A stretch of 64,000 bases of DNA from an uncultured bacterium (GTDB lineage Bacteria; Patescibacteriota; Minisyncoccia; UBA6257; 2-01-FULL-56-20), in NCBI GenBank assembly GCA_963830935.1, contig CAWHOC010000005.1, forward strand, positions 1,839-65,838. The letters run 5' to 3'. The position numbers and the translations under genes were made by a program. Positions 59,323 through 59,491 of this stretch are shown here, piece by piece; within the stretch, counting starts at the first letter, position 1, and each line of letters begins with the position of its first letter. Under the pieces are notes generated by a model. It did no database searches. It had not been told where the DNA came from and saw only the letters and a program-made list of their open reading frames with translations.

Positions 59323-59491
59323 GGGCTCTCCATAAAACAATGGCCAAATAACAAAAAACATCCTATTCGAGGGGCATCGCGGAGGCACGAAGGTGCCGAG
59401 CGCTGAGGCGGCCGGTCAGCAGGCCGGAACGCCGTTCCTGAGAATAGGATGTTTTTTGTTATTTGGTTTCCAATTGTTTTATGGAGAGCCC
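59323..59491. other. long hairpin H6: about 46-50 bp imperfect arms around a 73-nt GC-rich two-hairpin module (same module as H1)
   Basis: Left arm 59323-59368 and right arm 59442-59491. The interior holds GGAGGCACGAAGGTGCCGAG and GGCGGCCGGTCAGCAGGCCGGAACGCC. The right arm includes the last 33 nt of pnp. Confidence 0.7.

Follow-up and report, generated by a model that had tools for sequence, protein, structure and literature searches.

The 64-kb window (the whole stretch of 64,000 nucleotides that was analyzed) carries on its minus strand the pnp gene for polynucleotide phosphorylase (PNPase), with an S15 gene and an NYN-domain gene upstream and a gene for a 129-aa protein downstream. A long hairpin, H6, lies at the 3′ end of pnp and spans positions -33 to +136 on the pnp strand, counted from the stop codon, ending just upstream of the promoter of the next gene (Table 1). 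In this assembly, pnp is split into four ORFs by three single-base frameshifts; compared with L163, one of the related loci introduced below, the indels map to ~61119-61132, 60145 and 59837, the last being a CCCC to CCC homopolymer loss. A pilB-like ATPase gene at 15851-17566 is likewise broken into four ORFs by single-base frameshifts. The closest MAGs include long-read Microflora Danica assemblies, and the frameshifts in both genes are probably long-read consensus errors and not signs of gene decay or pseudogenes. Upstream of pnp, the last 88 residues of S15 share one reading frame, uninterrupted by a stop codon, with a 430-residue membrane-protein-like ORF (62437-63990); in relatives, S15 is a separate 88-aa gene. 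This fusion may be an indel artefact or may reflect an overlapping start.

Related loci were retrieved with the repaired C-terminal 224 residues of PNPase as the query against species-representative genomes and metagenomes, and further loci were obtained through exact-protein look-ups. These fetched loci are denoted by L-numbers, and W denotes the hairpin copy in the window. All matches of the 224-residue query were from Patescibacteria, and most of these were Paceibacteria/Parcubacteria MAGs. The window itself belongs to a genome of the Paceibacteria (Patescibacteria). When the 121-residue C-terminal fragment was used as the query, the search returned only partial proteins, none of them ending in ...QLE[TN]K, and the exact-protein look-up of the C-terminal ORF of W matched no record; the homologue P0062 has the C-terminus GLSIKQLQS.

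Table 1. Positions of the elements of H6 and of other long hairpins in the window.
Feature	Position	Strand	Basis or context
pnp (polynucleotide phosphorylase) CDS	59459..61599	-	ORFs, S1 domain, full-length homologues of 711-725 aa
Outer 5′ arm GGGCUCUCCAUAAAACAAU	59473..59491	-	Encodes G112 L S I K Q and the first base of L118
UGGAAA, coding side	59467..59472	-	GG pairs with 59342-59343, four bases bulged (alignment)
Inner 5′ arm CCAAAUAACAAAAAACAUCCUAUUC: last codons, stop codon, A-tract, stem	59442..59466	-	Perfect 25-nt inverted repeat
Module A, GC-rich tip, predicted three-way junction	59369..59441	-	Fold, consensus structure, covariance model
Inner 3′ arm GAAUAGGAUGUUUUUUGUUAUUUGG, holds the first U-tract	59344..59368	-	Perfect inverted repeat
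Outer 3′ arm CCAUUGUUUUAUGGAGAGCCC, derived reverse-complement copy of the pnp end	59323..59343	-	Complementarity to the coding end
Second U-rich tract UUUCGUUUUUGU, immediately 3′ of the GC-rich outer-stem base	59311..59322	-	Read from the sequence
TGTTAAAAT, extended -10-like box; ATG of the next gene a few bases on	59292..59309	-	Sequence
Long hairpin	17609-17722		After pilus-operon gene
Long hairpin	21054-21148		After comF, between convergent comF-like and secreted-protein genes
Long hairpin	38731-38854		After ATPase gene
Long hairpin	26185-26261		After tRNA-Gly
Further hairpin	27473-27537
Hairpin	36975-37043		Beside tRNA-Arg

The gene that follows the hairpin encodes a protein with the conserved motif PPPPxEVKVRTMRSD, for which a Pfam search gave no match. 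This gene starts a few bases past a conserved TGnTAAAAT box, and the same box with an ATG is also found after the hairpin in L002, L018, L081, L082, L163 and L166. The arrangement suggests that the mRNA of the 129-aa gene may be leaderless or near-leaderless. The conserved 3′ flank of H6 was also considered as the -35 region of this downstream promoter, a candidate that was rejected on spacing, as the distance to the -10 box is ~29 nt in W and 6 nt in L002. Between the 129-aa gene and the convergent recA gene, ~670 nt of AT-rich DNA (58238-58904) contain no convincing ORF.

When aligned to each other, the two arms of H6 (59323-59368 and 59442-59491) are paired over 46 bp. From the outside in, the pairing consists of a perfect 19-bp helix, the two pairs formed by GG, a 4-nt bulge and a perfect 25-bp helix; at the bulge, the coding arm reads TGGAAA and the downstream arm GG, which corresponds to the small indel that the first-pass annotation had noticed between the arms. 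The same annotation had described the 3′ end of pnp as inversely duplicated downstream, and exact counts bear this out. The 19-mer GGGCTCTCCATAAAACAAT has exactly two copies in the window, at 59323-59341 (+) and 59473-59491 (-), and the 25-mer CCAAATAACAAAAAACATCCTATTC only two, at 59344-59368 (+) and 59442-59466 (-), with zero copies of either expected in shuffled sequence. A repeat finder returned the perfect 25-nt inverted repeat 59344-59368/59442-59466 together with outer arms at 59323-59358/59456-59491. The ORF and the sequence also confirm that the right arm holds the last 33 nt of pnp (GLSIKQLETK and the stop codon), i.e., codons G112 to K121 plus the stop, followed by 17 nt of 3′ UTR.

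In the pnp-sense RNA, the coding end and stop codon are followed by an A-tract, a short stem, the GC-rich three-way junction and the return stem, and then by the outer return arm, the second U-tract, the -10-like box and the ATG of the next gene. The first U-tract, GUUUUUUGUUAUUU, lies at the base of the inner 3′ arm, and the base of the outer return arm, GGAGAGCCC, is GC-rich. The 73-nt core has a GC content of 72%, whereas the inner stem is AT-rich. The 211-nt region folds with a minimum free energy of -101 kcal/mol (shuffle mean -56; z = -10.7), and the complementarity score of the outer 3′ arm of W to the coding end is 38, compared with a shuffle maximum of 22.

The pnp gene ends in ...GKIGLSIKQLETK, which encodes ...G L S I K Q L E T K, with the stop codon at 59459-59461 on the minus strand. 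The Pfam S1 domain ends at I115 of the 121-residue C-terminal ORF, so that the right arm of H6 covers the last S1 strand, and the PNPase end peptide GLS[IL]KQ[LM] is kept in about 120 homologues of 75-100% identity. Because of this domain reach and this conservation, the coding arm can be regarded as native and ancestral, and the downstream arm is therefore the derived one. Additionally, the coding 13-mer of the outer arm is also present in L163-165, which are without the 3′ arm. These comparisons show the coding arm to be the original and identify the downstream arm as its reverse-complement copy.

Among the related loci, the hairpin most like that of W was found in L001, a contig of a short-read MAG (k141_...) in which PNPase has the C-terminus ...QLENK. 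L001 carries a homologous hairpin with module A, the bulge and an outer helix that reaches the same codons, and its arms have a 4-nt length difference at the same place as the bulge of W. In its outer helix, 6 of 22 positions are non-Watson-Crick (three G-U, two A-C and one U-C). L082 carries a homologous module A on a homologous inner stem (AAATAAAAACACCCCAT...) that begins at the stop codon; its coding end and its downstream spacer are without complementarity (score 10, p = 0.35, shuffle test). In L002, module A is absent and a perfect 30-bp stem with a 17-nt loop is found instead. Nevertheless, the L002 spacer past the hairpin is complementary to its own pnp end (CATTAAAACAAATGGAAGC versus the reverse complement CATTAAAGCAAGTGGATGC), with an extension score of 23 that exceeds all 2000 shuffles, and 3 of the 19 positions of this outer helix are non-Watson-Crick. 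In L166 and L167, a perfect 22-bp stem is capped by a tip of another kind, module C, which is 34 nt long. Here the complementarity is weaker and interrupted by gaps, and it again extends to GGTTGGGCT...TGGGAG in the pnp end (p = 0.07); L166 thus probably has an outer extension without module A.

The closest relatives of W are L163-165, with 90% identity over the pnp gene and 91% over its last 640 nt, and they share with it the neighborhood S15-NYN-pnp-129aa-recA. In these three loci the spacer after pnp is only 57 nt long (CAAAATCCCCTCTGTTCTCAGGGACGGCGCTCCG joined to TTTTTTTGTGCTAAAATAAAGCT, e.g., L163 3340-3396) and retains what is left of the 5′ arm together with ~18 nt from the start of module A, fused to the T-run before the promoter. 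A deletion of ~109 nt has removed the remaining 3′ portion of module A along with the two 3′ arms, and the same deletion allele is found in three independent assemblies. The pnp gene of these relatives is intact and its coding arm, TCCATAAAACAAT, unchanged. Since pnp stays intact in loci that have lost the hairpin's 3′ half, the outer stem is not essential, and this naturally occurring deletion shows the H6 structure to be dispensable.

In other relatives the pnp 3′ end carries hairpins of varied form. The outer helix is absent in L082, L081, L003, L099 and L018. Related "loop D" hairpins follow pnp in L081, L162, L099 and L018, tips of the module C type were found in L003 and L161, and L083 has a 19-nt loop of the same type as two loops in the window. 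L008, L022 and L068 have perfect stems of 19-33 bp starting 6-11 nt before the stop codon (at -7, -6 and -11, respectively), and more distant relatives have plain terminators of 8-14 bp after pnp. A T-rich base of the 3′ arm, paired to an A-tract, is common to L001, L082, L002, L018, L081, L099, L162 and L166; the A-tract stem base, AAATAACAAAAA, thus also occurs in orthologs that are free of module A.

These comparisons separate the outer stem from the module at its tip. Module A with the inner stem occurs without the outer extension in L082, the outer extension occurs without module A in L002 (significant) and L166 (suggestive), and both occur together in L001 and W. The distribution shows the outer helix to be independent of module A. 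The first-pass annotation had offered, as one of two readings, an insertion event that made the inverted duplication; this event would be the integration of a mobile GC-rich module by the pnp stop codon, with duplication of the upstream flank. Every copy of module A that we found does cap a long, locus-specific inverted repeat, and the orthologous pnp terminators of close relatives carry different tips, which implies that tips turn over. However, the outer stem is not the footprint of an insertion, because L082 has the module without the extension and L002 has the extension without the module. Furthermore, the bulge divides the outer and inner helices, which differ in their rates of evolution; hairpins with simple 12-19 nt loops also reach gene ends (L008, L022 and tRNA-Gly); and the A-tract stem base is shared with module-free orthologs. 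As for the other copies of module A, whose flanks the first-pass annotation had proposed to compare, the second copy in the window and those in L006 and L007 are located in unrelated stems, none of which begins before the stop codon of the gene that it follows. What that annotation had itself named as evidence against an insertion, i.e., relatives carrying the stem without the module, is essentially what was found, and the changes in the arms are mirrored. We regard the insertion reading as improbable.

Still less probable is a MITE with terminal inverted repeats of ~50 bp that inserted into the pnp end and whose repeat now supplies the C-terminus. In its shape, with a short core between long terminal inverted repeats at the end of a gene, H6 is similar to Correia- and RPE-type elements, and like MITE, Correia, REP and RPE elements, tip modules A, B, C and D are short structured sequences, bounded by inverted repeats at gene ends, that recur across loci and genomes. 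In H6, however, both arms are single-copy in the 64-kb window and locus-specific, among the 170 fetched loci the outer coding 13-mer occurs only at orthologous positions, the flanks (aaag/GGGCTC...GAGCCC/gatc) are without a direct target-site duplication, and the other copies of module A have unrelated arms. The arm encodes the conserved last S1 strand, which is present in relatives without such a hairpin, and a native coding arm excludes a transposon terminal repeat as the source of the PNPase C-terminus; with unique arms and a conserved coding arm, the MITE reading is refuted. The perfect repeat could also be imagined as a palindromic mis-join in a long-read MAG, and the single-base frameshifts of the window are indeed typical of long-read consensus errors. 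Nevertheless, L001, from an independent short-read assembly, has the hairpin, the module, the bulge and the outer arm with substitutions of its own, and the outer arm of L002 is homologous, which leaves an assembly artefact the least probable of the readings considered.

The best explanation, which we hold with moderate confidence, is that H6 is a pnp 3′ hairpin of the intrinsic-terminator type, whose stem has been extended and recently re-perfected by template-switch copying of the pnp end, and that its role as terminator and cap is generic to genes in this lineage and not specific to pnp. According to this explanation, an ordinary terminator hairpin typical of the lineage would have existed first and would then have been lengthened by copying, with replication template switching at the existing hairpin writing the 3′ arm as the reverse complement of the coding arm. 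The derived 19-mer segment is the exact reverse complement of the neighboring coding segment. Template switching is documented both as a source of new inverted repeats and RNA hairpins and as a process that lengthens and perfects existing ones (PMC8794818; PMC5941160).

The evidence for copying comes mainly from the comparison of W with L001. All three differences between their inner stems, including a 1-nt indel, are mirrored in the opposite arm. In the outer stem, a Leu codon is CTG in L163 and L001 and CTC in W, and the 3′ arm of W carries the matching C-to-G change, which amounts to a transversion pair swap; a CAA/CAG difference is mirrored in the outer helix too. The other changes in the outer helix of L001 are not mirrored. 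The outer helix of W is paired at 21 of 21 positions, compared with 73-84% in the sister versions, and a perfect 21-mer would be expected in ~1% of cases at the decay rate of L001 and L002 (our own estimate, 0.8^21). Between the 3′ arms of W and L001, ~8 of 21 positions differ, all toward the coding sequence of W and including a lineage-specific synonymous change, in a comparison where the arm of the nearest relative is deleted and the tree is mosaic.

The perfect helix of W, next to the decayed ones of L001 and L002, agrees with a recent re-copy of the outer arm in W; since the 4-nt bulge is common to W and L001, this re-copy would have been limited to the outer 19-21 bp, with the outer 3′ arm rewritten and the older bulge left in place. 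In the simplest account, the 3′ arm arose as a reverse-complement copy of its coding counterpart and was copied anew in W not long ago, and replication template switching is most probably what made and refreshed this copy. The mirrored changes, for which only W and L001 provide full hairpin copies, fit both DNA-level re-copying and compensatory selection on RNA pairing, and the latter may act as well.

Template-switch mutation and the correction of quasi-palindromes have reportedly been studied in E. coli by Ripley and Lovett. As in products of template switching, a segment beside the hairpin is the reverse complement of the other side, the differences between the arms are mirrored, including an indel, and one lineage is perfect while its sisters are decayed. 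H6 differs from such products in that the copied segment is protein-coding, the mechanism is read from the pattern, and the sampled loci include no ancestral and derived pair that is one event apart.

The history of the outer stem may include one origin with subsequent losses, several origins or transfer by recombination. The phylogeny of pnp has poor resolution. In a tree of the last 640 nt of pnp, L001 groups with W and L163, whereas in the whole-gene tree it falls outside with L169 and L170 (87% bootstrap), and W groups with L163 (92%). In windowed comparisons, the identity between the pnp genes of W and L001 is mosaic, with 77-82% in one third (alignment columns 450-900) and 86-91% elsewhere. 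Recombination in the pnp region among these Paceibacteria is likely, and we do not claim a single origin for the outer stem because the whole-gene and 3′-end trees disagree and the identities are mosaic.

As for its function, H6 most likely terminates transcription and caps the 3′ end, as inferred from its position and fold. It has the sense position after a gene, the stable GC-rich stem-loop and the U-tract 3′ of the stem by which intrinsic terminators are recognized, and the A-tract/U-tract arrangement of W is also seen in orthologs. The structure can be described in three layers, namely the structured GC-rich tip predicted for module A, an inner 25-bp stem whose base would pair the A-tract to the U-tract, and an outer 21-bp helix in which the last pnp codons would pair with the spacer upstream of the promoter of the next gene. 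The RNA form of H6 would end transcription and cap the 3′ end. A transcript ending at the first U-tract would be without the outer 3′ arm; thus, the full 46-bp stem would form only on read-through RNA, in which it would be followed, after its GC-rich base, by the second U-tract. In such RNA, the stem could plausibly serve as a back-up terminator or as a double-stranded RNase III substrate.

H6 resembles those Rho-independent terminators with an upstream A-tract (bidirectional or "extended stem") in which, after a stop codon, a GC-rich structure precedes a U-tract and an A-tract complementary to this U-tract lengthens the stem. However, a 46-bp composite stem with an A-tract paired to the U-tract is not the textbook form of a terminator, and H6 further differs in its tip, a 73-nt three-way junction in place of a tetraloop, in its reach of 33 nt into the coding sequence and in the second U-tract past the outer helix. 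That these stems matter as RNA is suggested by their mismatches. In the 27 pnp-downstream hairpins with a stem score of at least 14, 16 of 535 stem positions are non-Watson-Crick, and in the sense strand G-U pairs outnumber A-C mismatches by 10 to 3 (one-sided binomial about 0.05). Because of this excess, the stems can be assumed to matter as RNA, and it suggests that they would act in the direction of transcription.

In E. coli, pnp is autoregulated through a hairpin in its 5′ leader that is cut by RNase III. A related reading of H6 is that of a regulatory double-stranded RNA specific to pnp, with the 46-bp stem kept as a site of RNase III processing and autoregulation or as a block to 3′-to-5′ exonucleases. 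For recognition, RNase III-type enzymes need about two or more helical turns of near-perfect double-stranded RNA, a length that the helices of 19+2 and 25 bp provide; the mirrored changes in the arms and the excess of G-U over A-C in the sense strand are also in agreement with this reading. The rpsO-pnp leader hairpin of E. coli is, like H6, a long double-stranded stem adjoining pnp in an rpsO...pnp neighborhood. Nevertheless, that hairpin lies 5′ and H6 lies 3′ of pnp, H6-type hairpins are not restricted to pnp in this lineage, as the examples behind a tRNA and several unrelated genes of the window show, and half of the structure is gone in a close relative: L163-165 are without the 3′ half and yet have an intact pnp and the same gene neighbors. 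In L001 and L002 the outer helix has decayed, the five loci listed above are without it altogether, and distant relatives make do with plain terminators of 8-14 bp. A pnp-specific regulatory role is therefore rather unlikely in our view. The other first-pass reading, i.e., an unusually long 3′ stabiliser or RNase III-type target on the gene for an exoribonuclease, holds in part: the hairpin directly after the stop codon, the U-tracts and the G-U excess agree with it, but the structure is not specific to an exoribonuclease gene.

H6 is thus neither a scar of module insertion nor a control device specific to pnp, and it can be counted both among terminator hairpins and among quasi-palindrome extensions, two kinds of structure that are already known. 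It provides a natural example of a stem growing outward over the conserved end of a coding gene, with perfect, decayed and deleted states in sister lineages, and lends support to template switching as a process that can build and refresh RNA stems. For annotation, it cautions against taking such palindromes for scars of transposons or for regulators of a particular gene.

The consensus structure of module A, derived from four copies, has 10 of 23 pairs changed on both sides, and the covariance model built from these four copies matches both copies in the window and those in L001, L082, L007, L006 and L132. The second window copy (17628-17700 on the minus strand, 72 bits) lies in an unrelated 28-bp stem (17609-17722) between a small pilus-operon gene and the pilB-like ATPase gene, and the copies in L006 and L007 are located after the next gene. 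Since the A-tract stem base occurs in module-free orthologs, it is more likely that module A entered or replaced the tip of a pre-existing hairpin than that it created one. In Rfam 15, no family matched H6 or module A at gathering or permissive thresholds; in the whole window, only two tRNAs were found at the gathering threshold. The best sub-threshold scores over H6 were at chance level (lactis-plasmid, 21.6 versus 70 bits; PyrG leader, 18.6 versus 65 bits). A scan of viral contigs with the module core gave a single match, which was discarded as coincidental, inside a high-GC phage coding sequence.

Many genes here are followed by near-perfect hairpins of 20-33 bp. In the window, the hairpin after tRNA-Gly has a perfect 29-bp stem whose outer 9 bp are the last 9 nt of the tRNA itself, CCCGCUCCA, and it is the second case in this genome of a stem that takes in the end of the upstream gene. 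This perfect hairpin and the one at 27473-27537 (23 bp, also perfect) have unrelated stems and a common 19-nt loop, UCCrGGCAGAUGACCrUUC on the minus strand, and a loop of the same type caps the pnp terminator of L083 (about 2684-2745). Module C is found in the window at 21054-21148, as CTCGCTCC...hairpin...CCACTCGCT within a 20-bp A/T-tract stem, and related tips cap the pnp terminators of four relatives, L003, L161, L166 and L167. The "loop D" hairpin (AAAAGACCCTCC...GGACC, then UAGCGAGCAGACUCGAU) was observed at the pnp 3′ ends of L002, L162, L099, L081 and L018; it is near-identical in L002 and L162, two loci whose pnp 3′ ends share just 83% identity.

Because of this likeness and the patchy distribution of the tips, we consider that whole hairpins may have been exchanged or converted between lineages, as the sequences suggest. 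The gene 3′ ends of these small-genome bacteria thus carry unusually long, near-perfect hairpins with interchangeable structured tips, and the more novel lead of this analysis is that tips A-D recur in Paceibacteria on stems that are long, near-perfect and quick to evolve. A full-text literature search combining Patescibacteria and intrinsic terminator returned no match, and the recurring tip modules at Patescibacteria terminator hairpins appear to be undescribed. As a speculative and rather doubtful extension, the terminator hairpins of Paceibacteria might form a dynamic, partly self-copying system, in which tips A-D move or convert between loci and genomes and stems are rewritten from upstream sequence. 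If so, terminators would be made and renewed by a DNA-level process characteristic of the lineage, and not by point mutation and selection, and the rewriting of stems would take in coding sequence and the 3′ ends of tRNAs.

Elsewhere in the window, a 71-nt tRNA-like element ending in CCACCA lies at 56107-56177 on the plus strand. It scores 34 bits against the Rfam tmRNA model (gathering threshold 47), of which only the tRNA-like ends match, and ARAGORN makes no call. Within it, the 25 nt at 56119-56143 have an inverted copy of 84% identity at 56249-56273, ~105 nt downstream and past a promoter-like site.
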